From assembly GCA_027081145.1 (NCBI GenBank), contig JALWLB010000098.1, forward strand, positions 1 to 46,786: a DNA stretch of 46,786 nucleotides. Direction: 5' to 3'. Position 1 is the stretch's first letter. The number at the start of each line of letters is the position of its first letter. This DNA comes from Campylobacterales bacterium (GTDB lineage: Bacteria > Campylobacterota > Campylobacteria > Campylobacterales > QNZT01). The translations under genes and the position numbers were made by a program. Shown here one piece after another: positions 157-42,818 of the stretch. The notes beneath the pieces were generated by a model. The model had not been told where the DNA came from. It ran no database searches and saw only the letters and a program-made list of their open reading frames with translations.

Positions 157-191
157 TAATATCACAATTGGCTACATGATATCTTGATTTT

Positions 192-1595
192 TCAAGTACT
201 TCTCAACACCTTTATCCCAACAAATCCCAAAAATAGAAGCAACACCATAGGAAAGATATCTCCAACCTTACTATAAAGCGTCTTTACCCGTTTTGTAGGA
301 ATTGATGCTATCATGATACGCTCATTCTCTTCAAAATAGCTCATCGATGCTCTCACTCTGCCATACGCATCAAAAGCATACGAAGTTGCACCTCGTACTG
401 GACGAAGTAAGCTATATCCACCCTCAATTGCTCTTACCATCGCCATTTTTCCATGGATATGATCTATCCCTCTCCAATCACTTGAAGGAACTACTGCAAT
501 GTCTATTCCTTTTTTGGCTAACTCTCGTCCTAGACTTGGAAAATCAAAGTCATAACAGATAGCACCTGAGATATTTATCTTATCATGATAAATGACTTTA
601 GCTATTTTTTCGCCCTTTATCGCTCCCTCTCCAGGAACTGGATGATACTTAAAGTAGCTGTCAATTACCTCTCCTTTTTGGATATAAAGATATTTGTTTT
701 CAAACTTTTTGATACCATCTATTGGAACGATATATGCGATAACCAAATCCACGCCACTTTTTTGTGAAATGGCTTTTAGTTGCTTGATAAACACCTCTTC
801 ATCATTTTTAAATACAATCGTAGCACCCTCATTCCATGCTACCAATTTTGCTCCATAGCTGATAGCTTGTTTTGTTTTGTCTATGAGTGTTTGTGTGCCT
901 TTTTGTAAATATGATTTTTTAGGAATTTTCTCTTGGGTAATTTGCATATCACTAACAATAGCGGCTACTTTTAGAGTTGGTGATTTTTGAGCATTTTCCA
1001 AACGAAATACACCATAAGTGTAAAAAATAGTATAGATGCCTATCATAATAAGAGCAGGTTTTAGCAATTCTTTTTTATCTTTTATGAGTATAAAAGAAGC
1101 GATAAATGCAGAAGAGAGATAGATAAAAAAAGAGCCAAGTGTGATACCAAAAAGAGAGCTCATCTGCAAAAATGCTAAATCATGTAGCTTGGTATAACTC
1201 ATCGCTCCCCATGAGCCAAGCTCACTAGTATAATATGTCAACCACTCCGAAACCGACATCAATGAGGCAAAGAAAAATACCCCCATCAATTCGCTTATGC
1301 GAACTCTTATCTTTTCATATATCCACAAAATCACAAAACTTCCCACTGCCATAGGAGCAGAAAAAAGTAGTGCCATTATATAAGGCATAGGCTCTGTCAC
1401 AATCTTTGAAACTTGCAAAAAATACGCCACTTGAAACAAAACAAAGATCGACAACCACCCTTTTATACCTCTACTATCTCTCACCAAAATCAAAAGAGGC
1501 ACATACATCACCCATGCCAAGATACTTACATTATAACGCATCCCCACAAGAGCGATAAAAAGCACACTTAAACTCCATAAAAAAGCCCTATTCAT
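192..1595 (-). CDS. lnt: Apolipoprotein N-acyltransferase-like membrane protein (Lnt / carbon-nitrogen hydrolase family)
   Basis: The ~200-aa N-terminus is polytopic and hydrophobic. The CN-hydrolase domain has Glu (VAWNEGA) and Cys (ICYDFDFP) motifs, and there is a terminal TM helix. The start overlaps the tetR stop by 4 nt. Confidence 0.6.
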   Translation of the reverse strand: MNRAFLWSLSVLFIALVGMRYNVSILAWVMYVPLLILVRDSRGIKGWLSIFVLFQVAYFLQVSKIVTEPMPYIMALLFSAPMAVGSFVILWIYEKIRVRISELMGVFFFASLMSVSEWLTYYTSELGSWGAMSYTKLHDLAFLQMSSLFGITLGSFFIYLSSAFIASFILIKDKKELLKPALIMIGIYTIFYTYGVFRLENAQKSPTLKVAAIVSDMQITQEKIPKKSYLQKGTQTLIDKTKQAISYGAKLVAWNEGATIVFKNDEEVFIKQLKAISQKSGVDLVIAYIVPIDGIKKFENKYLYIQKGEVIDSYFKYHPVPGEGAIKGEKIAKVIYHDKINISGAICYDFDFPSLGRELAKKGIDIAVVPSSDWRGIDHIHGKMAMVRAIEGGYSLLRPVRGATSYAFDAYGRVRASMSYFEENERIMIASIPTKRVKTLYSKVGDIFPMVLLLFLGFVGIKVLRST

Positions 1596-2263: not shown

Positions 2264-2269
2264 AATAAA

Positions 2270-2298: not shown

Positions 2299-2313
2299 CT
2301 ATAATTATAAAGA

Positions 2314-2427
2314 AAATGGGGACAGGCTACTTTTATTTGATTTACAAACTATCGTATATCATGTAGGATAAATAAAACGGGATACTTTTTTACTCCTACT
2401 GTATATAAAGTAGCCTGTCCCTATTTA
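2314..2427. repeat. Hairpin inverted-repeat element B. The core arms are GGGACAGGCTACTTT (2319-2333) and AAAGTAGCCTGTCCC (2408-2422), extendable to ~20 nt with 1 mismatch, with a ~74-nt spacer.
   Basis: Same arm sequence and orientation as element A but an unrelated spacer. The spacer contains ATATCATGTAG (2356-2366). The element fills the gap between the mltG stop and the tetR promoter. Confidence 0.85.
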
Positions 2428-2435: not shown

Positions 2436-3392
2436 CTATTTCATATTTCTAAGTTTATTGATATTTTCTAAATGCTCTTTATAGCTATGAGTAAAATTAT
2501 GTTTATGATCAGTTGATTTAACAAAATAGAGATAGTTCACATCTGCTGGAGCTAGTGCTGCATTTATACTATTTTCATCAACTGAACATATTGGATGAGG
2601 GGGAAGAGCTGGAATTTTGTAAGTGTTAAATTGCGAGTCATCATCTCTTATTCTTTTGCTCGTTATCTTTTTTCTTGAGTATTTTCCATAATTTAGTGCT
2701 CCATCCATCTGAAGCTTCATACCAATTTTTAATCTATTGTATATAACAGCTGAGATAAGATCCATCTCTGAAACTAAAACTGCCTCTTTTTGTATGATAG
2801 AGGCTATTGTTACATACTTTTCAAACCACTCTTTTTGATCATATTTATTAAAAACTTTCAAAGCAAAATTTTTATGCCATGATAGCGAATAATCAACCAA
2901 AAACTTTATCAAACTTTTTTCATTAATATCTATTGGCACTTTATAAGTATTTGCTACAAGTACACCATCTGGATATGGAGCCAATTTATCATACTCTTGA
3001 TATAAAAGAGTTATATTTAAATCAAACTTTTTCGCAACCTCTTGAAAAAAGATATCTTTAGTCTCACCTGGAATTAAGGTGATAGATTTTAGTGCAACTT
3101 TAGAATGGGTTAATTTATACAAAAATTCCGCTCTAGTTAAAGAGTTAGATTGTAAATCAATCCAACCAGCTTGTAAATATCCAAAAAATGGTATTAAATA
3201 TCGATCAAATGGACCAATTTGTGAAAAATTTTTCTCCAAATATGATAGCGTTTGAGTAGTAGAGCCTTTTGGAATAAAAATCAACTTCTTTGTAGTTATA
3301 TTTTCATCCAAATAGGCTTTAAAAAATAATAAGACAAATACAAAAAAGATAAGTAAAAATTCAACTATAAAAAATGGTATAAGTCTTATCAT
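2436..3392 (-). CDS. mltG: Endolytic peptidoglycan transglycosylase MltG (YceG-like)
   Basis: Single N-terminal TM helix and a YceG-type C-terminal region (ASIIQKEA...NRL...LQMDGALNYG...YNTY). GAGG Shine-Dalgarno upstream. Confidence 0.75.
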   Translation of the reverse strand: MIRLIPFFIVEFLLIFFVFVLLFFKAYLDENITTKKLIFIPKGSTTQTLSYLEKNFSQIGPFDRYLIPFFGYLQAGWIDLQSNSLTRAEFLYKLTHSKVALKSITLIPGETKDIFFQEVAKKFDLNITLLYQEYDKLAPYPDGVLVANTYKVPIDINEKSLIKFLVDYSLSWHKNFALKVFNKYDQKEWFEKYVTIASIIQKEAVLVSEMDLISAVIYNRLKIGMKLQMDGALNYGKYSRKKITSKRIRDDDSQFNTYKIPALPPHPICSVDENSINAALAPADVNYLYFVKSTDHKHNFTHSYKEHLENINKLRNMK

Positions 3393-3411
3393 GTAACCTC
3401 AAAAGTAAAAT

Positions 3412-3843: not shown

Positions 3844-3872
3844 GTAAACCTCCTTATGTAAAATAAGTTTAC

Positions 3873-10928: not shown

Positions 10929-11071
10929 TTTGACTCCATTATAGGTGGAATATTGACTATAATATCGACATAAATTAATTTTTTTGAACTTTTTTAGAAA
11001 AAATATTTGTTTATTTATCAAAAAAATTGTACAATGACGCGTTTTACAACGACAATATAAAGGATTTAAGT

Positions 11072-11350: not shown

Positions 11351-11403
11351 TCTTACTTAGTCTATCTATTTTTTTATTACATGATATAGGTAGGCTGCAC
11401 TTT

Positions 11404-11490
11404 GCCGAGGTGGTGAAACTGGTAGACACGCTAGACTCAAAATCTGGTGGAATTTTTTCCGTGCCGGTTCGAGTCCGGCCCTCGGTACCA
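11404..11490 (+). tRNA. tRNA-Leu (anticodon CAA), long variable arm, encoded CCA
   Basis: Acceptor GCCGAGG/CCTCGGT, anticodon stem CUAGA/UCUGG with loop CUCAAAA, T-arm GGTTCGAGTCC, 87 nt. Very similar to canonical bacterial tRNA-Leu. Confidence 0.9.
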
Positions 11491-12775: not shown

Positions 12776-13281
12776 ATCACCAAAGCCACAATCCAGCCCA
12801 AAATAAAACCGATAATGTGAGCATACCAAGCAACTGGCATACCTAAAAGTAAAGGAGCAAAGCTTATAAGTAAAATTGCAACTACTAAACCTACTCTTAA
12901 ATTTTTATCTTTTAGTGCCATAAAACCTATCAAAACACTCAAAGCTCCACTAGCACCAACAAGTGTGCTATCAATTCCAAAATTTAGCATAAAAACCAAA
13001 CTCAAAAGTGAAGTTAAAACTCCACCTATCATGTAGAGTGCTAAAAATTTAAAAACCCCAATTTCTCTCTCTAAAATAGTTCCAAACTGAAATAAAACTG
13101 CCATATTCATAAATAGATGAGTCCAATTTGCATGCATAAACATACTACTAAGTGGTTGAAAAAATAGTTTATGTTCTAGAAATAGAGAGTTCATACCATA
13201 AATCACACTTGCATCAAGAGAGTCTTTTGTAATTAAAAATATTAAAATATTAACAACAATTAAACCTATAACAACTACCAT
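12772..13281 (-). CDS. Rhomboid family intramembrane serine protease
   Basis: Six TM helices, HANWTHLFMNM, catalytic GASGA and a downstream AHIIGF His. The start at 13281 is preceded by AGGAG. Confidence 0.75.
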   Translation of the reverse strand: MVVVIGLIVVNILIFLITKDSLDASVIYGMNSLFLEHKLFFQPLSSMFMHANWTHLFMNMAVLFQFGTILEREIGVFKFLALYMIGGVLTSLLSLVFMLNFGIDSTLVGASGALSVLIGFMALKDKNLRVGLVVAILLISFAPLLLGMPVAWYAHIIGFILGWIVALVI

Positions 13282-14081
13282 TTTAACTCCTGAAGTTTGT
13301 TCATGCAATACTCATATATCTCTTGATTTTTATGTCTTTTGGATCCATTTAGTAAAATATTTAACTTTTTCATTATCTCAGTTTTGATCTCTACATGATA
13401 TCTACTATTTAAATGTTTTTCAAGTGCATAAACTCTAAATCTATCCATAGCAAAATATCTATAAGATAGTTGATTTTTTTCTCCATCATACTTTGTTACC
13501 AATCTTTCATGTAGCAATCCTACACTATACTTATAAAGCACTCTAAGCCATAAATCATAATCTTCACAAACTTTTAAACTCTGATCAAAATATCCAACAT
13601 CTTTTAAAATCTTTTTATTTATCATCACACTTGATGGAGCAATTTTACAAAAGTTTAAATTTTCTAAAAAACACTCACCTTGAGGTTTTTTATGATGAGA
13701 TTTTTGATTTATCACTTTATCATCTCGTATCCACAACTCATTTGTATGAGAAAACAAAATATCTCTATTTTTTGTATGAAACTCAACTTGCAGTTTTAAC
13801 TTATCTTTATGCCAAAAATCGTCTGAATCTAAAAATGCAACCCACTCATTTTTACAAAGCTCTATACCACGATTTCTAGCACTACTCACTCCTAAATTAT
13901 CTTGTGAAATCAAAACTATTTGATCTTGAAACTTTTTTAAAATCTCTTGCGTCTCATCACTTGATCCATCATCTATAACTATAATTTCATCAGCTTTATA
14001 ACTTTGATTGAGTACAGATTTTAATGCTCTTAAGATAGTATTTGCTCTATTGTAAGTTGGAATTACAACAGATATCTTCAT
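13275..14081 (-). CDS. Family 2 glycosyltransferase
   Basis: MKISVVIPTYNR...IIVIDDGSSDET...FLDSDD are GT-A/GT2 signatures. Confidence 0.8.
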   Translation of the reverse strand: MKISVVIPTYNRANTILRALKSVLNQSYKADEIIVIDDGSSDETQEILKKFQDQIVLISQDNLGVSSARNRGIELCKNEWVAFLDSDDFWHKDKLKLQVEFHTKNRDILFSHTNELWIRDDKVINQKSHHKKPQGECFLENLNFCKIAPSSVMINKKILKDVGYFDQSLKVCEDYDLWLRVLYKYSVGLLHERLVTKYDGEKNQLSYRYFAMDRFRVYALEKHLNSRYHVEIKTEIMKKLNILLNGSKRHKNQEIYEYCMNKLQELKW

Positions 14082-21767: not shown

Positions 21768-22493
21768 TTAGTACTTGATCTTTGCCAAATATAGACCATT
21801 TGGCAAAGCTAAAGTACAATTGTGCAGTTTTTTACATGATAACTGCTCAATCAAATCTTTAGTTGTGAGTTTAGACTCACTAATCTTTAGTAAAAACCCA
21901 ACCATCATCCTAATTTGAGATCGTAAAAATCTATCAGCTTCAAAGTACATGATATAAAGATCGTTATATTTATAAAATCTTGTTTTATAGATAGTACAAA
22001 TATCACTCTTTGTATCACTGTTGCTTTTTTTAAATAGGCTAAAATTGTGTTTGCCTTCAAACAATTTTATAGCCTCTTGGATTTTACTTTCATCAATACT
22101 TTTTACAAATGTTATGTATGAGTTTAAAAATACAGATACTTCATTTGTAGATATCATGTAGCGATAGACTCTTCTTTTTGCACTAAATCTAGCATGAAAA
22201 TTTGAATCAACTTTTTGAATCTTTTTGATATAAATCTCAGGTAAACAGATACGATTTAGACAAGATTTCAATTTATCTAAATCTTTCCAAAAAGATGGCA
22301 ACTCCAAATCAACAACCCCAGCCAAAGCATGAACCCCACTATCGGTTCTACCACTAAAATTTATTTTAGAGTAAATATTTAAACAACTTAGAGCATATGA
22401 GAGTTTAGAAGCGACTGTTTGGCTGTGCTCTTTTTGTATTTGTGAGCCTCTAAATTTACTTCCATCATAACTAAGAGTGATTTTGATTTTCAT
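21768..22493 (-). CDS. truA: tRNA pseudouridine(38-40) synthase TruA
   Basis: MKIKITLSYDGSKFRGSQ...GRTDSGVHA (catalytic Asp motif), ~241 aa from the ATG at 22493. Confidence 0.9.
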   Translation of the reverse strand: MKIKITLSYDGSKFRGSQIQKEHSQTVASKLSYALSCLNIYSKINFSGRTDSGVHALAGVVDLELPSFWKDLDKLKSCLNRICLPEIYIKKIQKVDSNFHARFSAKRRVYRYMISTNEVSVFLNSYITFVKSIDESKIQEAIKLFEGKHNFSLFKKSNSDTKSDICTIYKTRFYKYNDLYIMYFEADRFLRSQIRMMVGFLLKISESKLTTKDLIEQLSCKKLHNCTLALPNGLYLAKIKY

Positions 22494-23666: not shown

Positions 23667-25033
23667 AAAAAGTAGCTCTTATTGGAAAACCAAATGTTGG
23701 CAAAAGTTCACTATTTAATCTCATAGCTCACAAGTTTGATGCTATAACTTCTGATATCAGTGGCACTACAAGAGATGTAAAAACCAAAGAGGTTTTGATA
23801 GAGGATAAACCAGCTATTTTAATAGATACTGGTGGATTGGATGATTCAAATGAACTCTTTAAAGAGGTAGAGAAAAAATCTTTACAAGTGGCAAAAGAGT
23901 CAGACATTATTCTTTATTTGGTAGATGGTAAGATTTTGCCAAGTGATGAAGATAAAAGGATCTTTTTTAATCTTGAGAGATTAGATGCTGATGTAGCTTT
24001 GGTTGTAAATAAGATAGACAATGAAAAGATGTTTGAACAATTTAGCTGGGAGTTTTACTCTTTTGGTGCAAAAAATATCTTTTTTATCTCAGCATCACAC
24101 AAAATAGGCACAAGAAAATTACAAAATTGGATAGCTTCAAAACTAGATGATAATAAACCAATATTGGTAGAAGATGATGATCTTAGCTTTGAAGAGTTTT
24201 TAGAAAATAAACCACAACAGATAAAATCGATAACAAAAGAGATTAAGATTGCAATAATTGGTCGAGTAAATGTAGGTAAAAGCTCACTCTTAAATGCTCT
24301 TATACAAAAAGATAGAGCAGTTGTTAGTGAAATTGCTGGAACTACAATTGATCCTGTAGATGAATCTATAATTTATAATGATACAACTTTTACTTTTGTT
24401 GATACAGCAGGAATTAGAAAAAGAGGTAAGATCGAAGGAATAGAAAGACATGCACTTTTTAGAACTCAAAAGATGCTAGAAAATGCTGATATAGCTCTTT
24501 TGGTGTTAGACTCTTCTGAAGAGTTTAAAGAGCTTGATGAAAAGATAGCCCATTTGGTAGAAAAGTTCTCTCTAGGTTGCATTATAGTGCTAAATAAGTG
24601 GGATAAAACTCTACATGATTATAAAACAAGTGTTAAAAAAGTAAAAGATAGATTTAAATTTTTATCTTATGCTCCTATTATAACTCTATCAGCTCTATCA
24701 AACAAAAGAGTTCATAAAGTAAATGATCTTATTTTAAAAGTGTATGAGAACTATTCAAGAAGAGTACCTACTTCAAAATTAAACGATCTTATAAAGTTTG
24801 CAAACTCAAAACACCATTTACCATCAGACATGGGAAAAGTTGTAAAGATATATTTTGCAACACAATATGATATAAAACCACCTAGAGTTGCACTTGTTAT
24901 GAATAGACCAAAAGCTCTTCATTTTAGCTATAAAAGATATCTTACAAATCAACTAAGAGAGCATTTTGAATTTGAAGGAACGCCAATTATTTTAGAGGCA
25001 AAACCAAAAAATCATCAACAGGAGAGTGAGTGA
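23663..25033 (+). CDS. der: Ribosome-biogenesis GTPase Der (EngA), double GTPase domains plus a KH-like domain
   Basis: Two G domains (GKPNVGKSS...DTGG; GRVNVGKSS...DTAG...NKWD). The start overlaps the MscS stop (ATGA). Confidence 0.95.
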   Translation: MKKVALIGKPNVGKSSLFNLIAHKFDAITSDISGTTRDVKTKEVLIEDKPAILIDTGGLDDSNELFKEVEKKSLQVAKESDIILYLVDGKILPSDEDKRIFFNLERLDADVALVVNKIDNEKMFEQFSWEFYSFGAKNIFFISASHKIGTRKLQNWIASKLDDNKPILVEDDDLSFEEFLENKPQQIKSITKEIKIAIIGRVNVGKSSLLNALIQKDRAVVSEIAGTTIDPVDESIIYNDTTFTFVDTAGIRKRGKIEGIERHALFRTQKMLENADIALLVLDSSEEFKELDEKIAHLVEKFSLGCIIVLNKWDKTLHDYKTSVKKVKDRFKFLSYAPIITLSALSNKRVHKVNDLILKVYENYSRRVPTSKLNDLIKFANSKHHLPSDMGKVVKIYFATQYDIKPPRVALVMNRPKALHFSYKRYLTNQLREHFEFEGTPIILEAKPKNHQQESE

Positions 25034-26428: not shown

Positions 26429-27685
26429 ATGGATACAGTAACTATAATAGACAATAGAACAAACAAAAGGGCAGAGTTTCCTATACTAAAATCTACTGCT
26501 GGAAGTGATGTTTTTGATATATCAACTCTTAACAAAGAGCTTGGTCTATACACTTATGATAATGGCTTTAGCATGACAGCTTCGTGTGAATCTAGCATAA
26601 CCTTTATAGATGGAAATAAAGGAGAACTATTTTATAGAGGATACCCTATAGAAGAGTTGGCTGGTAAAAAGAAGTATCTTGAAGTATGCTATTTGCTTCT
26701 ACATGATAAGTTACCAACAGAGAGTGAATTTAAAGAGTTTCGTGAAGATATGAGAATCAAAAGATATCCAAATGAAGGGATTAAAAAAATCTTTGACTCA
26801 TTTCCAGATAGTGCTCACCCTATGGCGGTACTATCTTCAGCTATCTCTGCTTTGAGTGCTTTTCACCATCAACACTTAAATATAACATCTCAACAAGAGT
26901 ATATAGAGATGGCAAAAAGAATAATAGCAAAAGTACCTACACTAGCAGCATACACATATAGACACTCTATGGGTTATCCAAAAATCTATCCCGATCTTGA
27001 TCGTGGCTTTGTAGAAAATTTTCTCTATATGTTAAGAGCATTTCCAGGTGGCAAAGCCGAAATTGCTCAAGTTGAAATAGACGCTCTTGATGCGATTTTC
27101 ACTCTACATGCAGATCATGAACAAAACGCTTCTACCTCAGCAGTTAGATTGGTTTGTTCAACCGGAGCACATCCTTATGCTGCAATTTCAGCAGGAGTAA
27201 ATGCTCTTTGGGGAAGATCTCATGGTGGAGCAAATGAATCGGTAATTGCTCAACTTGAGCTTATTGGAAGTGTTGAAAATGTTGATAAATTTATAAAAAA
27301 AGCAAAAGATAAAAATGATCCATTTAAATTGATGGGATTTGGACATAGAGTTTATAAAAATTACGATCCAAGAGCTAAAGTTTTAAAAAATATGAGAGAT
27401 AAACTTCAAAATGAGTTAGGGATAAATTCAAAACTCATAGAGATTGCAAACAGAGTTGAACAGATAGCTTTGAGTGATGAGTATTTTGTAAAAAGAAACT
27501 TATATCCAAATATAGACTTCTATTCAGGCTCTTTATTGACAGCTTTAAAAATTCCAAAAAGTATGTTTACTCCAATTTTTGTAATAGGAAGAACAGCAGG
27601 TTGGATAACTCAATGGATAGAGCAAAAGAGCAATCCAAAAAATAAAATCATAAGACCAAGACAGAGGTATATTGGAAAGTATTAA
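26429..27685 (+). CDS. gltA: Citrate synthase
   Basis: Type II citrate synthase signatures (LHADHEQNASTS, GFGHRVYKNYDPRA, NIDFYSG). Confidence 0.95.
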   Translation: MDTVTIIDNRTNKRAEFPILKSTAGSDVFDISTLNKELGLYTYDNGFSMTASCESSITFIDGNKGELFYRGYPIEELAGKKKYLEVCYLLLHDKLPTESEFKEFREDMRIKRYPNEGIKKIFDSFPDSAHPMAVLSSAISALSAFHHQHLNITSQQEYIEMAKRIIAKVPTLAAYTYRHSMGYPKIYPDLDRGFVENFLYMLRAFPGGKAEIAQVEIDALDAIFTLHADHEQNASTSAVRLVCSTGAHPYAAISAGVNALWGRSHGGANESVIAQLELIGSVENVDKFIKKAKDKNDPFKLMGFGHRVYKNYDPRAKVLKNMRDKLQNELGINSKLIEIANRVEQIALSDEYFVKRNLYPNIDFYSGSLLTALKIPKSMFTPIFVIGRTAGWITQWIEQKSNPKNKIIRPRQRYIGKY

Positions 27686-29388
27686 TACTTAATCCATCTT
27701 ATCATGTAGGGCTCTAAATCGATATTTTTTGTATTTATAGCCCTTTGATGTATCAAATCATATGCACCATTTTGCTCTATAGGCGTTTTACAATTTAGAC
27801 TCTTATTTGAAAAGTTATAAATTGCCAATATACTCTCACTCTTATCGATCGATTTTCTCTCTATCGCAAAGACCTTATCATGTAGAGATAAAATTTTAAA
27901 CTCTCCAAATGGATGAAAAGCTTTTTGTTCTTTTCTAATCGATAATAATCTTTTATACTCATTAAATATTTCTGCTCTAATAGATCCTTTTTGGTTTAAC
28001 TCTTTTGTTAATGTATCATAATCCAGCTTTTGACGATTTATAGATCTTTTCTCTTTTGTCTTTTTTACACCCTCTAAATCATTAGATGATCCAACCAAAG
28101 AGTGAAAATAGATCCCCGCAACTCCTGGCATACTTAATACAACAGCTTGAGTTAAAATCATCTTTTTAACTCTTAAATCCTGTTTTTCATCTTTGTTTGA
28201 GATGATATCTATATAACTAGCATTTAATTCATACGGTAACTCTTTGCCATCACTAGTAGATCGATACGACACAAAACCGCCATTTTTCTTCACATTTTTA
28301 ATCAAATCATCTATATCTTGTAAACTTAGTATATCACTAACAGCTCTTAATCCACACCCATCATGACTAGCACTAAAATTAAAAAAACAGACTCTATCAC
28401 TTGGCAAACTTAAAGAGTTAGCCCATTTGGTTAAAGCTTTTGTATTTTGTTTTAAAATGCTATGAGCTAGTAAGGGTGAGAGAGCAAAATTATAAACCAT
28501 TTGAGCCTCATCATAACCATTGCCAAAATATGAGATATTTTCATCATGTGGAACATTGGTCTCTGTTACTATTATAACCCAAGGGGCAATTTTATGTATA
28601 ACTTCTCGCATAAGCTTTATCAATTCGTGTGTCTGTTTTAGATGCACACAAGAGGTACCAATAATCTTCCATATAAAAGCAATTGCATCAAGCCTAAGCA
28701 GATCTGCCCCTTTTTGTACATAAAAGAGTAAAACATCCAAAACAGCTATCAAAACTTTATAGTTTGCATAGTTTAAATCAACCTGATCTTTACTAAAAGT
28801 TGTCCAAATGTATCTATTTTTTTTATCGATATCTTGATAATCATGTAGCAGTGGCAGTGTACGAGGCCTAGTTACACCTGATAGATCCACACTTGGATCA
28901 ACTTGTGTAAAAAACTCTTTATAACAAGGATCATTTTTCAAAAATTTTTGAAACCAGCTTGAAGATTGAGATACATGATTTATAACTGCATCAAACATCA
29001 ATCGATAATTTTTAGAGAGATTTTGGATATCTTGCCATGAACCCATCTTTGGGCAAACCTCTTTATACTCAATAACAGAAAATCCATCATCTGATGAGTA
29101 TGGATAAAATGGCAAAATATGTACAGAGTTTATAAAATCTTTTACATATCTATCTAAAAAGTTGTTTAAACTAAGAAGTGGTTTTTGATTTGGCTTTAAC
29201 ACTTGATTGGCATATGTTATCAAAATCACATCTTTTTCACTCAGTTGATACGATTTGAACTCTATCTTATCTTTATACTTATCTATTAGCTCATTTATAC
29301 ACTTAAATGCTTTTTGTGCATCTTGATCACTATATATTAGTTGCAATCTACTTAAAATAGTATCTTCTTTTTGATATATCTTATTCAT
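27682..29388 (-). CDS. GH13_18 sucrose-phosphorylase-family enzyme, probably glucosylglycerate phosphorylase (YcjM-like)
   Basis: RLDAIAF (nucleophile region), VTETN (acid/base), FSASHDGCG. At 568 aa it fits the longer YcjM-type members rather than the ~490-aa sucrose phosphorylases. Confidence 0.6.
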   Translation of the reverse strand: MNKIYQKEDTILSRLQLIYSDQDAQKAFKCINELIDKYKDKIEFKSYQLSEKDVILITYANQVLKPNQKPLLSLNNFLDRYVKDFINSVHILPFYPYSSDDGFSVIEYKEVCPKMGSWQDIQNLSKNYRLMFDAVINHVSQSSSWFQKFLKNDPCYKEFFTQVDPSVDLSGVTRPRTLPLLHDYQDIDKKNRYIWTTFSKDQVDLNYANYKVLIAVLDVLLFYVQKGADLLRLDAIAFIWKIIGTSCVHLKQTHELIKLMREVIHKIAPWVIIVTETNVPHDENISYFGNGYDEAQMVYNFALSPLLAHSILKQNTKALTKWANSLSLPSDRVCFFNFSASHDGCGLRAVSDILSLQDIDDLIKNVKKNGGFVSYRSTSDGKELPYELNASYIDIISNKDEKQDLRVKKMILTQAVVLSMPGVAGIYFHSLVGSSNDLEGVKKTKEKRSINRQKLDYDTLTKELNQKGSIRAEIFNEYKRLLSIRKEQKAFHPFGEFKILSLHDKVFAIERKSIDKSESILAIYNFSNKSLNCKTPIEQNGAYDLIHQRAINTKNIDLEPYMIRWIKY

Positions 29389-30592: not shown

Positions 30593-31415
30593 CAACAACT
30601 CCATTAGTTTTTAATTCATTCAAAGCTTTTTTAAAACTCTTTTTGCTAAGTCCAAATATTTTGTATATCTTTTTAGGATCACTCTTGCTATCACACGGTA
30701 ACACGCCATCATACTCTTTTAAAACTTGCATAACTTTTTTAATAGCAACTTCATCTTTTTCTCTCTTTGGTGGATTTAGTGAAATATCCAATTTGCCATC
30801 TTGTCTGATATTTTTTATAAAACCTATTTTGTGATCTCCTATTTTGATATCTTCAAAAATCTCATTATAATATAACATACCCTCATATAAATTTTCCACT
30901 ATAACTTTATATCCCATTGGAGTTTTTGCAAAAATGAGTAGTTTTATCTTTTGATCTTTTTTCAACTCTTTTGTGTTTGAACTTAAAAACTGTTGTACTT
31001 TTGTACTTCCTATTAATCTATCGCTCTTTTGATCTACACTAACTCTTAAGATTACTTTTTGAGAAATTTTTAAAGGAGTCTTTTGAAGTGATTTTGGTAC
31101 AAATAGATCCTTTGGTAATCCCCAATCAACAAAAGCACCAATTTTATTAACATCAACTACTCTAAAATTATAAAATTCCCCCAACATCGCATATGGACGC
31201 TTTGTAGTAGCTACCAATCTATCTTTGGAATCTTTATAGATAAAAACATCTATGATATCTCCAATTTTCATCGAAGATATCATGTAGCGATTTGGAAGTA
31301 GTACCTCTTGATTATCACTTGAGCTTAAATAGAGTCCATTTTCTGAAGCTCTAACTATTTTGAGCGAATTTACTAAACCAAGAGCTATATGCTTATTCAC
31401 ACCTATCAATGCCAA
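30585..31415 (-). CDS. cvfB: CvfB/YitL-family S1-domain RNA-binding protein
   Basis: Repeated S1-like modules (FVDWGLPKDLFVP) and a C-terminal winged-helix-like tail. ~276 aa. Confidence 0.65.
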   Translation of the reverse strand: MALIGVNKHIALGLVNSLKIVRASENGLYLSSSDNQEVLLPNRYMISSMKIGDIIDVFIYKDSKDRLVATTKRPYAMLGEFYNFRVVDVNKIGAFVDWGLPKDLFVPKSLQKTPLKISQKVILRVSVDQKSDRLIGSTKVQQFLSSNTKELKKDQKIKLLIFAKTPMGYKVIVENLYEGMLYYNEIFEDIKIGDHKIGFIKNIRQDGKLDISLNPPKREKDEVAIKKVMQVLKEYDGVLPCDSKSDPKKIYKIFGLSKKSFKKALNELKTNGVVDV

Positions 31416-33123: not shown

Positions 33124-33956
33124 GAATTTTCCTTTAATTTGCAATATTCATTATCTGAGCACTGTTCTTGAACTTTATAAGCATTTAATCGTCTCATCAA
33201 TCCATCAAAATCAACTTTATGTCCATCAAATTCTGGACCATCAACACAAGCAAATTTTATTTTTGAATCTATTGTAACTCTACACCCTCCACACATTCCA
33301 GTACCATCTATCATGATAGGATTTAAGCTAACAAGTGTTGGTACATCAAACTCTTTTGTCATTTTGCTAACAAACTTCATCATAGGAACTGGTCCAATAG
33401 CTATAACTTGATCAACCTTTTTACTCTCTAAAATCTCCTTTAATACATCAGTTACAAAACCATGATGACCATATGTTCCATCATCTGTACAGATATGAAT
33501 CTCATCTGATATAGCTCTCATCTTATCTTCAAGTATTAGATAATCTTTAGCTCTAGCCCCAAGTATTGTTATAACATTGTTACCTATCTCATGATTTGCT
33601 TTGGTTATGGGATGTAAAACTGCCGTTCCAGTTCCACCACCTACACAAACAACTGTTCCTACTTTTTCTATATGTGTTGGTTCACCAAGTGGGCCTGTTA
33701 TATCTTGATAAAAGTCTCCAACTTTCAAAGAGCTAAACAATCTTGTACTTTTACCTACTATCATGTAGATAATTGTAATAGTTCCATTAGCTTTATCAAC
33801 CTCTGCCATAGTTAGAGGAACTCTCTCGCCTCTCTCATTAGCTTTAACCATAACAAACTGTCCTGGTTTTGCTTTTTTTGCTATTTGGGGTGCTTTGATC
33901 TCATTAGAGATAATCGACCCCTTTGCCATGCTAACTCTACTTACAATCTCATACAT
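33120..33956 (-). CDS. NfnA / PyrK-like FAD/NAD-binding [2Fe-2S] subunit (sulfide dehydrogenase-like ferredoxin:NADP oxidoreductase alpha)
   Basis: PGQFVMV...RVPLT (FAD), GGGTGTA (NAD), C-terminal GTGMCGGCRV...C cluster motif. The ATG at 33956 is preceded by AAAGGGG. Confidence 0.75.
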   Translation of the reverse strand: MYEIVSRVSMAKGSIISNEIKAPQIAKKAKPGQFVMVKANERGERVPLTMAEVDKANGTITIIYMIVGKSTRLFSSLKVGDFYQDITGPLGEPTHIEKVGTVVCVGGGTGTAVLHPITKANHEIGNNVITILGARAKDYLILEDKMRAISDEIHICTDDGTYGHHGFVTDVLKEILESKKVDQVIAIGPVPMMKFVSKMTKEFDVPTLVSLNPIMIDGTGMCGGCRVTIDSKIKFACVDGPEFDGHKVDFDGLMRRLNAYKVQEQCSDNEYCKLKENS

Positions 33957-34137: not shown

Positions 34138-36714
34138 ATGCAAAATATATTTGAAAAATTAACACACGCTACAAGAGAAGCAATTGAGAGTGCTATTAGC
34201 CTAGCACTTCACAATCAAAATCAAGAAGCCACTCCACTACATTTGCTATGGGGAGAGTTGGCAAATAGTAACTCTATTTTAAATCAAGCATTAAATAAGA
34301 TGAATGCTTCTAAAGAGGCAATTGCACTAGAGGTAAAAAGCAGAGCTGAAAAATTACCAAAAGTCTCATCAGTTACAAAAGAGAATATTAAAATTTCAAA
34401 CGATTTAGCCCAAAGTTTGCAAAAAGCTGAAGCTTTAATGGTAAAAAATGGGGACTCTTTTATAGCTATTGATACTTGGTTTATAGCAAATTTGGATAAT
34501 CCATCAATTAAAGAGCCATTATCAAAATTTATAGATTTAAGCGAACTTAAAAAGACATTTGAAGCTATGAGAGGTGGTAGAAAGATTGACTCTAGTACTG
34601 CTGAAGAGAAGTTAGAAGCTTTAGAAAAATATGGAATAAATTTAACTCAAAAAGCAATTGATGGTGAACTTGATCCTGTGATTGGCAGAGATGAAGAGAT
34701 ACAAAGGATGATGCAAATATTAATTAGAAAAACTAAAAATAACCCTATTTTATTAGGAGAACCAGGAGTTGGTAAAACTGCTCTAGCTGAAGGTTTAGCT
34801 CAAAGAATAGCAAACAAAGAGGTTCCTTTAAGCCTTCAAAATAAAAAATTAATAACTCTTGATATGAGTGCTTTAATTGCTGGAGCAAAATATAGAGGAG
34901 AGTTTGAAGATAGATTAAAAGCTGTTATAGATGAAGTCAAACAAGATGGAAATATTATACTTTTTATAGATGAGATACATACAATTGTTGGAGCTGGAGC
35001 TAGTGAAGGTAGTATGGATGCTGCAAATATATTAAAACCAGCCCTTGCAAGAGGTGAACTTCATACCATAGGAGCAACTACTCTAAAAGAGTATAGAAAA
35101 TATTTTGAAAAAGATGCAGCCTTGCAAAGAAGGTTTCAACCAATTACGGTTAATGAACCAACTATAAATGAAGCTCTACAAATCATGAGAGGTATCAAAG
35201 AGAAACTAGAAGCTCACCATAATGTTCAAATTTTAGATAGTGCTCTAGTAGCTGCTGTTAAACTTAGTAGCAGATATATAACCGATAGATTTTTACCAGA
35301 TAAATCTATAGATCTTATAGACGAAGCTGCTGCTGAACTTAAGATGCAAATAGAATCAGAACCGTTTGAGCTTAGTAGAACAAAAAGAGAAATTGAGAGT
35401 TTATTGGTTGAAAAAGAGGCACTTTTGATGGAAAAATCTAGCAAAAATGAGGAGAGATTAAAAGAGATAGAAAAAGAGATAGCAAACCTTGAAGAGAAAA
35501 AAGTAGCCCTAGAGAGTCAATTTGAAAATGAAAAAAATGTCTTTAAAAATATTGCTGATATCAAACAAAAGATTGATGAGTTAAAAAGGGAGGCTGAACT
35601 TGCTAAAAGAGGTGGCGATTTTAATAAAGCTGCAGAGATAGAGTATGGTGAAATTCCTAAACTTCAAAATAGGGAAAAAGAGTTAAATGAGCAGTGGCAA
35701 AAGATGCAAGAAGGAGGAGTACTTTTAAAAAATAGTGTTGATGATGAAATGATAGCTTCCATCGTAAGTAAATGGACATCAATCCCTGTAACTAAAATGC
35801 TAACAAGTGAAAAAGAGAGAATTTTAGGGGTCGAAGATGAATTAAAAAGAAGAGTCGTAGGTCAAGATAGTGCTCTTAAAGCGATCGCAAGAGCAATTAA
35901 GAGAAACAAAGCTGGTCTTAGTGATCAAAATAGACCTATAGGATCTTTTATGTTTTTAGGACCAACTGGAGTTGGTAAAACTGAAAGTGCCAAAGCTTTA
36001 GCTTCGTTTTTATTTGATAGCGATAAATCATTAATTAGATTTGATATGAGTGAATATATGGAAAAACACGCAGTTAGTCGTTTAGTTGGTGCACCTCCTG
36101 GATATGTTGGATATGAAGAGGGAGGTCAATTAACCGAAGCTGTAAAAAGAAAACCATATAGTGTAGTACTATTTGATGAGATAGAAAAGGCTCATCCAGA
36201 TGTTTTTAATATACTTTTACAAGTATTAGATGATGGAAGGCTTACCGATAACAAAGGTGTAACGATCGATTTTAAAAATACAATTATTATCTTAACTTCA
36301 AATATAGCAAGTGATAAGATTATGGAATTTCGCGATCCAGAAGATAGAGAAAAAGCGGTTAAAGATGAATTAAAACTTCACTTTAAGCCTGAATTTTTAA
36401 ATAGGCTTGATGATATTATAATCTTTAATCCACTAGAGATCGAACAGATTACAAAAATAGTTGATATACTATTAAAAAGTATTGAAGATAAATTAAAAGA
36501 TAGATCGATTGAGCTTGAATTAACTCAAAGTGCAAAAGAGTATATAGCAAAAGAGGGATTTGATCCAGTCTATGGTGCAAGACCACTAAAAAGAGCACTC
36601 TATGAAGAGATAGAGGATAGATTGGCTGAGCTTATACTATCAGATAAGCTACATGATAATCAAAAAATTGTCTTTGATTTACAAAATAATCAATTAACTT
36701 ATACAATCACTTAA
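34138..36714 (+). CDS. clpB: ATP-dependent chaperone/disaggregase ClpB
   Basis: Clp N domain, two AAA+ modules (GEPGVGKTA; GPTGVGKTE) and a long middle coiled coil. 858 aa. Confidence 0.95.
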
Positions 36715-40044: not shown

Positions 40045-40046
40045 TC

Positions 40047-42818
40047 ATGAAAAATTTACAACTATTTATACTCATACTCTTTTTATCTTTTATGATAAAT
40101 GGATGTGGATCAAATGAAAAAAAGAGACAAAATGGTACTGAATTAACGATAAAAACAACTGCATCTAACACTAAACAAGAGTGGCAAGCAACTCCAGTAC
40201 TAAAAACTTGGGAAGAAGCCAAAGAGTATTGTGCCAATTTAGATTTAAATAATCAAACAGATTGGAGATTGCCAAGTAGTGAAGATTTTTTTACTCTCTT
40301 AGATGGCAACAGATCAATAGATGAGTATTTTCCAAAAAGCTCTCTTATAAAAGAGTTTTACACAAATAACAAAACCGATTTCGATGAAAATCAGATATGG
40401 AAACTATCGGCTTGGAGTAACACTCTTTCTTATACACATAAAAGTAAAAAATTGGGTGTTAGGTGTGTAAGAGGTGAAAAAAAACAGACACCAGAGCTTA
40501 TATGGAAGCCACATAATGATCAAACATTCACATGGAATGAAGCAAATAGTTATTGCAAAAATCAAAATGCAAGAGTTCCAACAATTTTAGAGCTTATCAA
40601 GCTACATGATATCAACCAAACAGATAATTTTATCCCATTTTGGTCATCAACTCCACTACCTACAAATCATAACCAATATCTAAATATTAATTATAAAAAA
40701 GGGATCTATTTTAGCAATAAAGAGACAAAAAACTATGTAAAATGTGTCAAAAATAAGATCATACCAACTATATCGGTTTATGATACAAATTTTTCAGAAG
40801 ATGGTAATTCAAACTTTATGGTACTAAATATAAATCCAGCACCAACACAAGATCTACAAATAACTTACACTCTAACTAGTGGTAGTGCAAAAAAGGGAGT
40901 TGATTTTGATGAGACAAATCAAACACTTACAATAAAAAAAGAGACTCCATTAACTATTATTAATATACCAATCATAAATGATCACTTTCCAGAAGATACT
41001 GAAAGCTTTTATATCACTCTAAGCAATCCAATCAATGCTAAATTAAAAAATATAACTGCAAAAATAACCATTTTAGATGATGATTCACAAAATAGTGCTT
41101 TTATAACTAAATGGAAAACAACATCTGCTAATGAGTCAATAACTATACCAACAAAAGCTGGATTTTATTATAACTATAGTGTTGATTGGGGTGATGGCAA
41201 TCAAACAACAAACCACACTGGCAATGCTACACACACTTATACAAATCCAGGAAAATATACCATAAAAATATTTGGTATTTTTCCATCTATAGACTTTACA
41301 AACTCAAACAATCAAAATCAAATCTTATCCATAAATCAATGGGGAAGCGTAGGTTGGCAAAATTTGGATAACGCTTTTTATAACTGTATTAATTTAGAAT
41401 TAAACGCTACAGATACACTAAATTTTCAAGAACAAAATATCTCAATAGATAAAATATTTTTTAATACCTCTGTATCAAACGAGAGCATCTCTTCATGGAA
41501 TGTTAGTAACAAAATCATGCCTCAATCTATTCATAAAACAGTAGATGAAGATCATAATATATCGATAGATTTAAGAAGAGGCTATGATGATAATCTAACA
41601 TATCATGTAGAGACAAATACAACAAATGGATCTTTAAATATAGATAATTTACCAACTATCATCTATACTCCAAATGAAAATTTTAACGGTAGTGATAGTT
41701 TTATATTTAGAGTAAGTGATGATAATAACTTCTCAGATACAGCTACAGTTACTATCACCATAAATCCTATAAACGATCCTCCAAATGTTAATATAAATAT
41801 CATTGGAGCTTGGGAAGTTGGAGAAAGTATTATATTTGAATCAAATAGTAGTGATGTTGATGGGGATTTTTTAACTTATCAATGGGAAGAAAATGGAGTA
41901 TCTATATCAACTAATGATCAAAACTTTACAAAAACTTATACAGATGAGGGAAATTATACAATTACACTCATAGTTAGTGATCCATATATATCTATTGTAA
42001 AAAGTATAGATATAAACATCACAAATCCACCTTTTAAATTACCAAAAACAGGTCAAATCAATACATATCATAACTTTGATGATGGATACTATCAAAAAGG
42101 AAGCCAAAGAGTATTTACAAAATTTAACAATATGGTAAAAGATAAAAACTTAAACCTTTTTTGGCAAGATGATAATAATACAATTATTAAAAAAACATTT
42201 ATTCAAGCGTATGATTATTGTGATAATTTAACTCTAAATGCCAAAAATGATTGGAGATTGCCAACTAAGCATGAACTATTTTTTCTAGCAAAAAAAGATA
42301 CAAATGAAACTTTAGAAGATATATTTTCATATAAAAAGTATGATCAATATTGGAGCTCTGGTATGATAGATACTGCTACCTCAATAATTACTATTGACTT
42401 TTCAAATGCAACAGAGCAAATAGAGTCTATTGATGAAGATTACTATGTTAGATGTGTTAGAAGTGATATTGACTTTTATCCAAATATTTCATCATCAAAT
42501 GGTATCATTACAGATCATACACTAAATCTTATGTGGTATGATAGCTCTGAGTTTTTAAACTATAGTGATGCTATAAATAGATGTGAAGATTTGAATATTT
42601 CAAACTATAATGATTGGAGAGTTCCAAATATAAATGAGTTATATACTATACAACAAGATTTTTTTCCTAACATTGCTCATGTTCAATACTGGTCATCTAC
42701 TGCACAATATGACACTAACGGTTCAAAAATTTATACATTTGATTTTAGTCTAAATCTTATAGAGTTAAAAAATAGTATAGATTATGCAAAAACAGTATGT
42801 GTTAGAGATATTAAATAG
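40047..42818 (+). CDS. Mosaic surface lipoprotein: lipobox, 2x DUF1566 (Lcl-C-like), Calx-beta, DUF285/PKD-like, cadherin-like Ig, PKD, 2x DUF1566
   Basis: MKNLQLFILILFLSFMINGC lipobox. DUF1566 hallmarks (W.EA..YC..L......DWRLP...EL....VRCVR) occur four times. Calx-beta (VDFD...LTI...IPIINDHFPEDTESF). WGDG...HTYTNPGKYTI. VSDDNNFSDTATVTITINPINDPP. The gene starts 2 nt after the FecR-like stop. Confidence 0.7.
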   Translation: MKNLQLFILILFLSFMINGCGSNEKKRQNGTELTIKTTASNTKQEWQATPVLKTWEEAKEYCANLDLNNQTDWRLPSSEDFFTLLDGNRSIDEYFPKSSLIKEFYTNNKTDFDENQIWKLSAWSNTLSYTHKSKKLGVRCVRGEKKQTPELIWKPHNDQTFTWNEANSYCKNQNARVPTILELIKLHDINQTDNFIPFWSSTPLPTNHNQYLNINYKKGIYFSNKETKNYVKCVKNKIIPTISVYDTNFSEDGNSNFMVLNINPAPTQDLQITYTLTSGSAKKGVDFDETNQTLTIKKETPLTIINIPIINDHFPEDTESFYITLSNPINAKLKNITAKITILDDDSQNSAFITKWKTTSANESITIPTKAGFYYNYSVDWGDGNQTTNHTGNATHTYTNPGKYTIKIFGIFPSIDFTNSNNQNQILSINQWGSVGWQNLDNAFYNCINLELNATDTLNFQEQNISIDKIFFNTSVSNESISSWNVSNKIMPQSIHKTVDEDHNISIDLRRGYDDNLTYHVETNTTNGSLNIDNLPTIIYTPNENFNGSDSFIFRVSDDNNFSDTATVTITINPINDPPNVNINIIGAWEVGESIIFESNSSDVDGDFLTYQWEENGVSISTNDQNFTKTYTDEGNYTITLIVSDPYISIVKSIDINITNPPFKLPKTGQINTYHNFDDGYYQKGSQRVFTKFNNMVKDKNLNLFWQDDNNTIIKKTFIQAYDYCDNLTLNAKNDWRLPTKHELFFLAKKDTNETLEDIFSYKKYDQYWSSGMIDTATSIITIDFSNATEQIESIDEDYYVRCVRSDIDFYPNISSSNGIITDHTLNLMWYDSSEFLNYSDAINRCEDLNISNYNDWRVPNINELYTIQQDFFPNIAHVQYWSSTAQYDTNGSKIYTFDFSLNLIELKNSIDYAKTVCVRDIK

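Follow-up and report, generated by a model that had tools for sequence, protein, structure and literature searches.

The decamer CTACATGATA is hyper-abundant in a contig of 46,786 nucleotides from an uncultured hydrothermal-vent bacterium (the whole stretch analysed, referred to as the window), and it represents one 'dialect' of a family of CATG-centred hyper-abundant decamers in vent Campylobacterota. We are confident that it is a real, nucleotide-level and lineage-specific word of the HIP/DUS class. The more specific reading, that it is a lineage-specific, genome-saturating self-tag of the DUS/USS/HIP1 class with a link to natural transformation, is advanced tentatively, as a possibility about which doubt slightly prevails. 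Together, the two motif-bearing species provided ~87 kb, from which genome-wide behaviour is extrapolated. No description of the word was found in the searched literature; it resembles, as an apparently new relative, the self-tag words (uptake sequences, cyanobacterial HIP1) employed by other bacteria in DNA exchange.

Abundance and sharpness of the word in the window

Three nested forms are distinguished, namely the 10-mer core CTACATGATA, the 9-mer CTACATGAT and the 12-mer CTACATGATATC; the core is one base longer than the 9-mer described in an earlier sequence-only reading. The 9-mer occurs 17 times (7+, 10-), exactly at the coordinates listed in that reading, versus a mean of 0.49 (maximum 3) in dinucleotide shuffles, which agrees with its estimate of less than one copy per window. 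The six 12-mers it reported are all exact (0.01 expected), as is the shared 17-mer AGATATCATGTAGCGAT, which lies at 22149 and 31275; a second long shared stretch, the 16-mer TCTCTACATGATATCT, is found at 13388 and 20808. Over-representation in the window is thereby confirmed, with a density of 363 per Mb and an observed/expected ratio of 28-61 (~35 times chance). In an unbiased census of words with at least five occurrences, the word family ranks first for k = 8 to 12; when words with four occurrences are included, GCCTGTCCC outranks it at k = 8 and 9. GCCTGTCCC is the terminal repeat of an inverted-repeat element. Among the 100 CATG sites of the window, 34 lie within ACATGAT, close to the third of ~100 sites given before. 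The 17 copies are as follows.

172..180, +: CTACATGAT within CTACATGATATC, intergenic, just past the stop of the Lnt-like gene, adjoining the small hairpin CTTGATTTTTCAAG
1179..1187, -: CTACATGAT, sense, L-H-D, Lnt-like gene (192-1595)
2358..2366, -: CTACATGATA, intergenic, within the inverted-repeat element 2319-2421
13028..13036, -: CTACATGATA, sense, Y-M-I, rhomboid gene
13391..13399, +: CTACATGATATC, antisense, family-2 glycosyltransferase gene (13275-14081)
20811..20819, +: CTACATGATATC, antisense, overlap of RibF-like and FtsJ/S4 methyltransferase ORFs
22153..22161, -: CTACATGATATC, sense, Y-M-I, TruA; shares the 17-mer with 31279
24611..24619, +: CTACATGAT, sense, L-H-D, Der/EngA
26699..26707, +: CTACATGATA, sense, L-H-D, citrate synthase; TTATATGATA (L-Y-D) in the sister species
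27701..27709, -: CTACATGATA, sense, Y-M-I, GH13 sugar phosphorylase, close to its C-terminus; family consensus Y-Q-V
27877..27885, -: CTACATGATA, sense, L-H-D, GH13 sugar phosphorylase; family consensus L-D/G-D/E
28840..28848, -: CTACATGAT, sense, L-H-D, GH13 sugar phosphorylase; family consensus (I/V/L)-H-E
31279..31287, -: CTACATGATATC, sense, Y-M-I, CvfB
33760..33768, -: CTACATGATA, sense, Y-M-I, NfnA-like Fe-S subunit gene
36649..36657, +: CTACATGATA, sense, L-H-D, variable C-terminal region of ClpB; nearest relatives L-V-E
40602..40610, +: CTACATGATATC, sense, L-H-D, large PKD/Lcl surface protein gene
41602..41610, -: CTACATGATA, antisense, same PKD/Lcl gene as 40602

The consensus is sharp. 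There are 23 relatives that differ from the 9-mer by one mismatch (not ~17, as first counted) versus ~12.7 expected, so that exact and one-mismatch forms stand at 17:23, where random sequence would give 1:27. The mismatch falls at position 1 or 9 in 17 of the 23, and deviations in HIP1 are likewise biased to outer positions (PMC4390886). Three relatives of type TTACATGATAT had been placed at 6314, 9546 and 11377; the last is correct (+), while the other two are on the - strand and off by one (6315 and 9547). The variant TTACATGATA occurs six times in the window versus 0.33 expected:

3388..3396, -: TTACATGATA variant supplying the ATG start codon of a YceG/MltG-like gene
3838-3847, 6316-6325, 9548-9557, 11377-11386 and 21832-21841: further TTACATGATA variants

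Reading frames and cost to proteins

The word is a signal at the nucleotide level, carried by double-stranded DNA and neither by protein nor by mRNA. The earlier tally of frames was reproduced, with seven copies read as L-H-D, five as Y-M-I (both sense), three antisense and two intergenic. Each of the four stop-free frames exceeds the codon-independence expectation 20- to 500-fold and intergenic DNA is enriched as well, which bears out the claim that the word is not tied to one peptide. The tripeptide LHD is found 10 times in the window versus 1.2 expected (8-fold), with 7 of the 10 encoded by CTACATGAT, and YMI 6 times versus 1.0 (6-fold), all encoded by TACATGATA. As had been noticed, the word forces uncommon codons on these peptides (CTA and TAC), and YM followed by a residue other than Ile is always encoded by TATATG in the window.

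It had been stated beforehand that an observed/expected ratio near 1 after codon-aware shuffling would count against the word. In the window the ratio is not near 1, since the 17 copies compare with a mean of 4.0 (maximum 8 in 1000) when synonymous codons are shuffled with proteins fixed, and of 2.3 under codon permutation, the two intergenic copies being held fixed in both; for genic copies, 15 are observed versus ~2 under the synonymous shuffle. Given these shuffles and the enrichment across frames, codon-pair preference does not account for the word.

Copies are preferentially placed in intergenic DNA and at poorly constrained protein positions. Although the window is ~96% ORF-covered, 4 of the 22 copies in the window and L081 are intergenic, and family-consensus residues are displaced at word sites (LVE to LHD in ClpB; YQV to YMI in the sugar phosphorylase). 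The USS has likewise been reported at protein positions with displaced consensus residues (10.1101/2025.10.24.684340, citing Findlay & Redfield).

Dialects and comparison with known words

Confinement to the window had also been named as a finding that would speak against the word. Three more copies are present in 4.3 kb past the contig end (L384), and eight in a 36 kb contig of the sister species, four of them intergenic. A 99%-identical strain keeps all five window copies in the shared 5.8 kb and has one additional copy through a CAC/CAT polymorphism. Sites turn over between the window and the sister species, and near-matches were 'perfected' independently in both; the word has arisen repeatedly out of near-matches, by synonymous and conservative non-synonymous substitutions. 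In orthologous genes, 0 of 3 sites are common to window and sister, a number too small to interpret, though it lends conservation no support. Three more distant relatives lack the word, and with no copy in L084/L387 and L085 its distribution is patchy. No close inverted pairs forming terminators occur in the window; one overlapping quasi-pair is seen 3' of clpB in the sister species.

A related clade carries the palindrome TATCATGATA, which has the CATGATA half in common with the window word. Its density there is 1 per 1.1 kb, with 20 sites counted in 22.6 kb of L389 and 7 in 13 kb of L390. Positional conservation between these two species, at a nucleotide identity of 70%, extends to 4 of 11 sites versus a background of 5.4% (p = 0.002). 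Another clade gives a weaker CGCATGCG signal, and the CATG core is common to all dialects. The window word is therefore one member of a CATG-centred family, so that cyanobacterial HIP1 compares with it as closely as DUS/USS do.

HIP1 and alternate HIPs (GCGATCGC) resemble the word in reaching hundreds to thousands of copies per Mb, at tens to hundreds of times expectation. The window's density and ratio fall inside the HIP1 range, given as 300-2700 per Mb and 55-228 in one study (PMC4390886), with ratios of 15-300 in another (PMC5861425). Both occupy all frames and intergenic DNA, have lineage-specific variants and one-off deviations at outer positions, keep sites between species (here in the TATCATGATA clade), and contain a short palindromic core of restriction/methylation type (CATG here; CGATCG/GATC in HIP1). 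The function of HIP1 too is debated, recent evidence pointing to transformation. Unlike HIP1, the word is AT-rich, has 10 bases, belongs to Campylobacterota, is non-palindromic in the window dialect and is patchy among close relatives, whereas HIP1 is phylum-wide; nor was a putative cognate methyltransferase found in the window. With the DUS of Neisseriaceae (GCCGTCTGAA and dialects) and the USS of Pasteurellaceae (AAGTGCGGT / ACAAGCGGT), it shares the form of an asymmetric 9-12-mer at ~1 per 1-3 kb, lack of replichore skew, dialects that differ among related lineages, a choice of frame governed by coding cost, placement at poorly conserved protein positions with intergenic enrichment, and a sharp peak at the exact consensus relative to one-mismatch forms. 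It differs in having no sequence similarity to them, no inverted pairs (about half of DUS/USS form terminators in this way), no ComP- or ComN-type receptor visible in the window and one palindromic dialect, none being known for DUS/USS.

Candidate functions

A role in DNA exchange would fit these likenesses, and the uptake-type signal, one of three candidates proposed from the sequence, is still the best of the three. A DNA-binding or DNA-modifying protein may read CATG and its flanks, with a flank specificity that would have drifted between lineages; that one recogniser serves both the asymmetric window word and the palindrome of its relative is an assumption. Such recognition might bias a step of natural transformation, either binding and uptake of extracellular DNA or protection and recombination once inside, and word-bearing alleles would therefore move between cells more often and spread by molecular drive, possibly with selection, until about one copy per 1-4 kb is reached. 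Neither a competence gene nor a DNA methyltransferase nor a candidate receptor is encoded in the window itself. To our knowledge, the RAATTY motif of the methylation-dependent uptake system of Campylobacter jejuni (CtsM) is not a driven hyper-abundant 10-mer; it is degenerate, a 6-mer common by composition, and recognised when methylated. The phylum is the same, however, and if the word is a self-tag, both would discriminate self from non-self at DNA uptake by a short sequence mark (PMC10046745). The transformation link is drawn from the literature, in which a 60- to 100-fold rise in transformation is recorded for methylated HIP1 (10.1101/2024.09.10.611283), HIP1 varies in abundance along with DNA-uptake genes (10.64898/2026.06.24.733823) and Campylobacter uptake depends on methylated RAATTY (PMC10046745).

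An array of binding sites that selection maintains for the sake of nucleoid structure, bound by an abundant nucleoid protein or chromosome organiser and without a role in DNA exchange, is unlikely but deserves serious attention. It would account for a hyper-abundant, orientation-neutral word with a sharp consensus in all frames, and the palindromic dialect, with its positionally conserved sites, suits a dimeric protein; an HU-like gene lies at 11027-11350, though HU is not sequence-specific. A role in chromosome structure has been argued for HIP1 (PMC5861425). The asymmetric window word is nevertheless a misfit for a simple homodimer, its sites turn over between the window and the sister species, and at the scale of sequence available spacing is neither periodic nor clearly more even than random. 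Known site-specific organisers (matS, parS, SBS, NBS) occupy tens of sites in a genome rather than about a thousand. Nucleoid-structure selection was reportedly proposed for HIP1 by Xu et al.

Rather improbable is a functionless by-product, in which a CATG-family methyltransferase and biased mismatch repair convert near-matches; Elhai is said to have modelled HIP creation by sequence-biased repair/methylation. The CATG core of all dialects and the independently perfected near-matches speak for it, as does the full avoidance of ACATGT in the window species, which shows the lineage to be under CATG-family restriction-modification pressure. So do the deviations at outer positions, as in HIP1, whose inner core is a methyltransferase site (PMC4390886). 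The positional conservation between L389 and L390, far above background, argues against it. Xu et al. reportedly took such conservation as evidence for selection, not neutral replenishment. Moreover, the CATG methylation known in Campylobacterota is m6A, which does not produce the deamination mismatches required by such models, and we know of no methyltransferase or very-short-patch repair target with a contiguous asymmetric specificity of 10 bp.

A sense-strand signal in RNA or linked to transcription (RNA-binding protein site, RNase site or internal promoter) is very improbable. The orientation bias had been said to follow transcription; that claim is weak, with sense:antisense at 14:4 in the window and sister species (p = 0.03 against 50:50). 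A sense fraction of 61-76% is expected from amino-acid composition alone, since antisense frames require Cys or Y-H-V, and coding constraints thus predict about the observed bias, so that an RNA-level explanation is not needed. Some intergenic copies do coincide with an extended -10 (TGATATAAT; in the sister species, 5223 of the merged contig and 3681 of L081), others fall on start codons (3388 and 3839 in the window; 19873 in L384), and the word contains UACAU, a MazF-type cleavage pentad. Against this, antisense frames are still ~20-fold enriched, the conserved part lies 5' of TG with downstream -10 positions not conserved, and the palindrome TATCATGATA, identical on both strands, cannot be strand-specific.

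A polar chromosome signal guiding repair or segregation (Chi for AddAB/RecBCD, KOPS for FtsK) is the least credible, even though Chi and KOPS/AIMS are also short words over-represented across the chromosome, the word is asymmetric with 8-10 bases, the window encodes an FtsK with a gamma domain and a Chi-like role has been suggested for HIP1 (10.1101/2024.09.10.611283), since those signals are strongly leading-strand skewed, whereas no replichore-type skew was found here (7+/10- in a window of almost uniformly negative GC skew), orientation tracks genes rather than strand, and the palindromic dialect carries no polarity.

Abundance and consensus of the word

The 9-mer CTACATGAT occurs 17 times in 46.8 kb (+ strand, 7 copies; − strand, 10). 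Dinucleotide-preserving shuffles average 0.49 copies and never exceed 3. All 17 positions listed in the sequence-only reading proved exact, as did its six positions for the full 12-mer CTACATGATATC, for which 0.01 copies are expected. An unbiased k-mer census (order-3 Markov), limited to words with at least five occurrences, places the word family at the top of the over-represented words for every k from 8 to 12, with ratios of 16 to 330; once words with four copies are admitted, the family is outranked at k = 8 and 9 by GCCTGTCCC, an inverted-repeat end. When sites are aligned on either half of the word, ten positions stand out as rich in information, CTACATGATA; the flanks show only weak preferences, for C, then G/T, on the left and for T, then C, on the right. 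The density of the word in the window is 363 per Mb, with an observed/expected ratio of 28-61 (order-3 Markov).

One-mismatch relatives of the 9-mer are also in excess (23 versus ~13 expected), the change being located at position 1 or 9 in 17 of the 23, and exact sites stand to one-off sites as 17:23, compared with 1:27 for random sequence. A general depletion of CATG was rejected (100 CATG sites versus ~93 expected by codon permutation), and so was regular spacing (CV 1.04 for the 9-mer); spacing of the 8-mer has a CV of 0.72, with 5% of random placements being equally or more even. Two pairs of copies have long identical flanks, which exceed what the weak flank preferences readily explain:

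22149-22165 and 31275-31291: common 17-mer AGATATCATGTAGCGAT
13388-13403 and 20808-20823: common 16-mer TCTCTACATGATATCT

Reading frames, orientation and local coincidences

Twelve genic copies are in sense orientation (seven reading L-H-D and five Y-M-I), three are antisense and two further copies are intergenic. The tripeptide LHD is observed 10 times versus 1.2 expected and is encoded by CTA-CAT-GAT in 7 of these 10 cases, CTA representing only 14% of Leu codons. Likewise, YMI is observed six times versus 1.0 expected and is always encoded by TAC-ATG-ATA (6/6), with TAC representing only 13% of Tyr codons; where Y-M is followed by a residue other than Ile, TAT is used without exception, as first remarked from the sequence alone. 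All four stop-free frames are enriched 20- to 500-fold relative to codon independence. The sequence-only reading had staked the excess on its survival of codon-aware shuffling, and it survives: exchanging synonymous codons within genes, with every protein sequence fixed, leaves ~2 genic copies versus 15 observed, and codon permutation leaves ~0.3 versus 15. A codon-pair or dipeptide artefact is thus rejected by LHD and YMI codon use, by enrichment in all frames and by the codon shuffles. The word acts on the nucleotide level and not on proteins. Homologue alignments show that usual residues in ClpB and in a GH13 sugar phosphorylase are overwritten by the word. In ClpB, K-LHD-N replaces the K-LVE-N of the nearest relatives; the GH13 enzyme has YMI where its family has YQV, LHD where the family has L-(D/G)-(D/E), and a second LHD where the family has (I/V/L)-H-E.

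The earlier claim that the orientation bias follows transcription holds in part, the bias being real but only modest (14 sense : 4 antisense in the window plus its sister species, p = 0.03 versus 50:50). Amino-acid composition alone would give 61-76% sense copies, and an antisense copy demands S-C-R/S or Y-H-V, peptides less common than L-H-D and Y-M-I. A sense bias predicted by composition, together with the palindromic dialect of a neighbouring clade (see below), argues against an RNA-level signal. GC skew is negative across almost the entire window, which therefore probably lies within one replichore; TACATGAT is distributed 13+/15−. Polar chromosome words of the Chi/KOPS type, which are strongly co-oriented with replication, were rejected, since the word shows no such co-orientation (7+/10− under near-uniform GC skew) and the palindromic dialect is without polarity.

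A promoter reading was also rejected, because conservation is seen in the bases 5′ of TG and not at the −10 positions. A few intergenic copies nevertheless fall on an extended −10 (TGATATAAT) or provide a start codon. The coincidences in the window, in the sister species (L081 and a 36 kb merged contig) and in L384, a contig running 4.3 kb past the window end, are:

Merged contig 5223 and L081 3681: two intergenic copies of the sister species that read TGATATAAT, a perfect extended −10
Window 11377-11390: TTACATGATATAGG, directly upstream of a tRNA, of which it could double as the extended −10
Window 11404-11487 (+): this tRNA, the only match in an Rfam search of the window
Window 3388-3396 and 3839-3847, and L384 19873-19880: sites where the ATG of the word or of its TTACATGATA variant is the initiation codon of a YceG-like gene, of MscL and of a nucleotidyltransferase antitoxin-like gene, with a Shine-Dalgarno-like GAGG or GGTG before each

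The word and CATG-centred dialects beyond the window

The window is one complete contig from the metagenome-assembled genome of an uncultured member of the Campylobacterota. Its species is present in several hydrothermal-vent metagenomes (among them ERZ23491300, ERZ27262687 and ERZ940665), and its ClpB is 78-79% identical to those of Nitratiruptor and Nitrosophilus. The 4.3 kb past the left end of the window, known from a contig of another sample, contain three further exact copies. A 99%-identical strain keeps 5/5 window copies in the shared 5.8 kb and has one added copy due to a synonymous CAC/CAT polymorphism. In the sister species, whose ClpB is 91% identical and whose nucleotide identity is 80-85%, 8 copies are found in 36 kb, half of them (4/8) intergenic. 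The copies past the contig end and in the sister species show that the enrichment reaches beyond the window; the sequence-only reading had considered a restriction to the window damaging. An assembly artefact was rejected, as assemblies made independently from other vent samples contain the same copies. The sites themselves differ between the window and the sister species, each having perfected its own near-matches in ClpB, GltA and AcnB through synonymous and conservative changes; positional conservation is 0/3 versus a background of 22.5%, and three orthologous sites are too small a number to bear on conservation.

Zero copies were found in relatives whose ClpB is 83-85% identical (GC 44-52%). 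The genomes with CTACATGATA include GCA_054012975.1 and GCA_054047085.1; GCA_054029515.1 and GCA_054011335.1 are free of the word. Outside the lineage the word is sparse: 295 unrelated metagenomic and viral loci, 2.2 Mb in total and each picked up through one copy of the word, contain ~21 additional copies, which corresponds to ~1 per 100 kb. Among the matches listed, a ClpB-seeded scan of genome collections gave mostly distant taxa, none close and none enriched. Scanning a metagenome collection with the 14-mer GCTACATGATATCT gave at least 120 background matches of one copy each, and scans of viral contigs found no phage carrying the word, only single-copy background matches. One short metagenome contig with three CTACATGAT copies (VAPK010874994.1, 2884 bp, GC 0.32) may belong to the lineage of the window and is the only such candidate among the metagenome matches listed; it has no similarity to or overlap with the window or L081.

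A different word was found in a neighbouring clade represented by L389 (GCA_054041865.1, JBPKWH010000007.1) and L390 (GCA_024762875.1), whose ClpBs are 80-81% identical to that of the window and 91% identical mutually. Their whole loci contain zero copies of CTACATGAT. The word found there is the palindrome TATCATGATA, in many cases as the longer CTATCATGATAG; it occupies two reading frames as well as intergenic DNA, with 20 sites in 22.6 kb of L389 (~0.35 expected; ~886 per Mb) and 7 sites in 13 kb of L390 (~0.1 expected). The right half, CATGATA, is common to TATCATGATA and the word of the window, where TATCATGATA has 4 sites (~9-fold enriched) and the palindrome CTACATGTAG has 0 copies. Between L389 and L390 (70% nucleotide identity), 4 of 11 TATCATGATA sites are kept in place, against a background of 5.4% for ordinary 10-mers (p = 0.002). 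In L083, a relative with a GC content of 50% (ENA ERZ28505417 contig_44819), CGCATGCG has 7 sites versus 0.8 expected, often as CCGCATGCGG (examples of CGCATGCG at 7011, 13373, 15805, 16508, 17150, 18367 and 21387), and GCATGC has 35 sites versus ~11 (order-3 Markov), an excess of about threefold; CGCATGCG may represent a third, weaker CATG-centred dialect. Nothing comparable was found in the other close relatives examined. With dialects in some relatives and none in others, the picture is that of a family of hyper-abundant decamers, patchy in distribution, in which the CATG centre is constant and the flanks differ by lineage, drawn from ~87 kb of two CTACATGATA-bearing species and ~36 kb of the TATCATGATA clade.

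One site, downstream of clpB, carries a word in both lineages and is without either in the window; it may have survived the change of dialect:

L081 12579-12596, immediately past the stop codon of clpB: CTACATGATATCATGTG, in which two inverted copies overlap
L389 12581-12590, equivalent spot after clpB: the TATCATGATA clade's own word

Relation to known iterated words and possible function

In Neisseria, the preferential uptake of motif-bearing DNA is mediated by the receptor ComP. Uptake sequences (DUS/USS) are described only in Neisseriaceae and Pasteurellaceae (10.1101/2025.10.24.684340). The word shares with them the status of a 9-12-mer far above chance with about one copy per 1-3 kb, occurrence in both orientations without leading/lagging skew (7+/10−), frame use set by coding cost (its sense bias fits the amino-acid expectation), permissive protein positions (non-consensus residues at word sites), as well as asymmetry, dialects and a preference for intergenic DNA. 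However, DUS/USS form many inverted terminator pairs, whereas the word has 0 close inverted pairs among 33 sites, the sister species having one overlapping quasi-pair after clpB; moreover, CTACATGATA is outside the known dialect series and its host is a member of the Campylobacterota near Nitratiruptor and Nitrosophilus.

The cyanobacterial highly iterated palindrome HIP1 reaches 300-2700 copies per Mb with observed/expected ratios of 55-228 (PMC4390886) or 15-300-fold (PMC5861425), and the densities and ratios of the word and of the L389 palindrome are inside these ranges. Further likenesses are a hyper-abundant 8-10-mer present in all frames, one-nucleotide deviations at the outer positions (17/23 for the word) and, for the palindrome of the TATCATGATA clade (4/11), conservation of sites between species. 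Words of the HIP1 type are accompanied by a cognate (orphan) DNA methyltransferase that targets their inner core. In contrast to HIP1, CTACATGATA is not its own reverse complement, while TATCATGATA of the related clade is a palindrome. Differing from HIP1 by its lack of a palindrome and from DUS/USS by terminator pairs, sequence and taxon, the word is a member of neither family and is related to them by likeness only. Literature searches for the CTACATGATA word and its palindromic relative matched only primers and unrelated sequences; they found no paper joining 'DNA uptake sequence' with Campylobacterota and, among the papers listed, none joining iterated palindromes with this phylum.

HIP1 has been tied to transformation in recent work (10.1101/2024.09.10.611283; 10.64898/2026.06.24.733823), and Campylobacter DNA uptake depends on a sequence mark (PMC10046745). 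By analogy with both, a transformation-linked self-tag would be the most economical mechanism, in which we infer the transformation step. Two rival explanations are live, namely that the word is explained by an array of sites for a nucleoid protein, or that it is a by-product of repair or methylation. The window genes are all ordinary housekeeping genes, with no competence or pilin gene and no DNA methyltransferase among them.

Extending the self-tag reading, it is possible, although on balance rather doubtful, that, next to DUS/USS and HIP1, there is a third family of self-recognition words that saturate genomes, independent of the other two and carried by uncultured hydrothermal-vent Campylobacterota. 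Its members would have a CATG core and dialects that can switch (TATCATGATA, which is palindromic, CTACATGATA, which is asymmetric, and possibly CCGCATGCGG), and would set the specificity with which cells take up or recombine each other's DNA. If so, the HIP and DUS phenomena would be linked as one mechanism. Sequence-specific uptake tags are firmly established in just two proteobacterial families and the function of HIP1 has been debated for 30 years; a third family in another phylum would offer an independent comparative system, with close genomes having different dialects or none. Since palindromic and asymmetric dialects occur in sister clades, it would show how a tag changes specificity, and would allow asking which methyltransferases, pilins and DNA receptors co-vary with the word, how tags come to change their specificity and what price in protein sequence a genome will pay for them. 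The word would also be a candidate tool toward transformable vent Campylobacterota, and a would-be marker for binning and for foreign DNA in their metagenome-assembled genomes.

Two features adjoin these observations. The window is without the palindrome ACATGT (0 sites versus 7.3 by maximal-order Markov or ~16 by base composition), for which the 36 kb of the sister species contain 7 sites; its absence from the one and presence in the other suggest a PciI-type restriction system confined to the window's species. Two intergenic elements, without Rfam match, resemble a MITE or a structured RNA and have the same ends:

17-149 and 2319-2421: common terminal inverted repeat GGGACAGGCTAC...GTAGCCTGTCCC, arms ~80-110 bp apart; 2319-2421 holds one copy of the word
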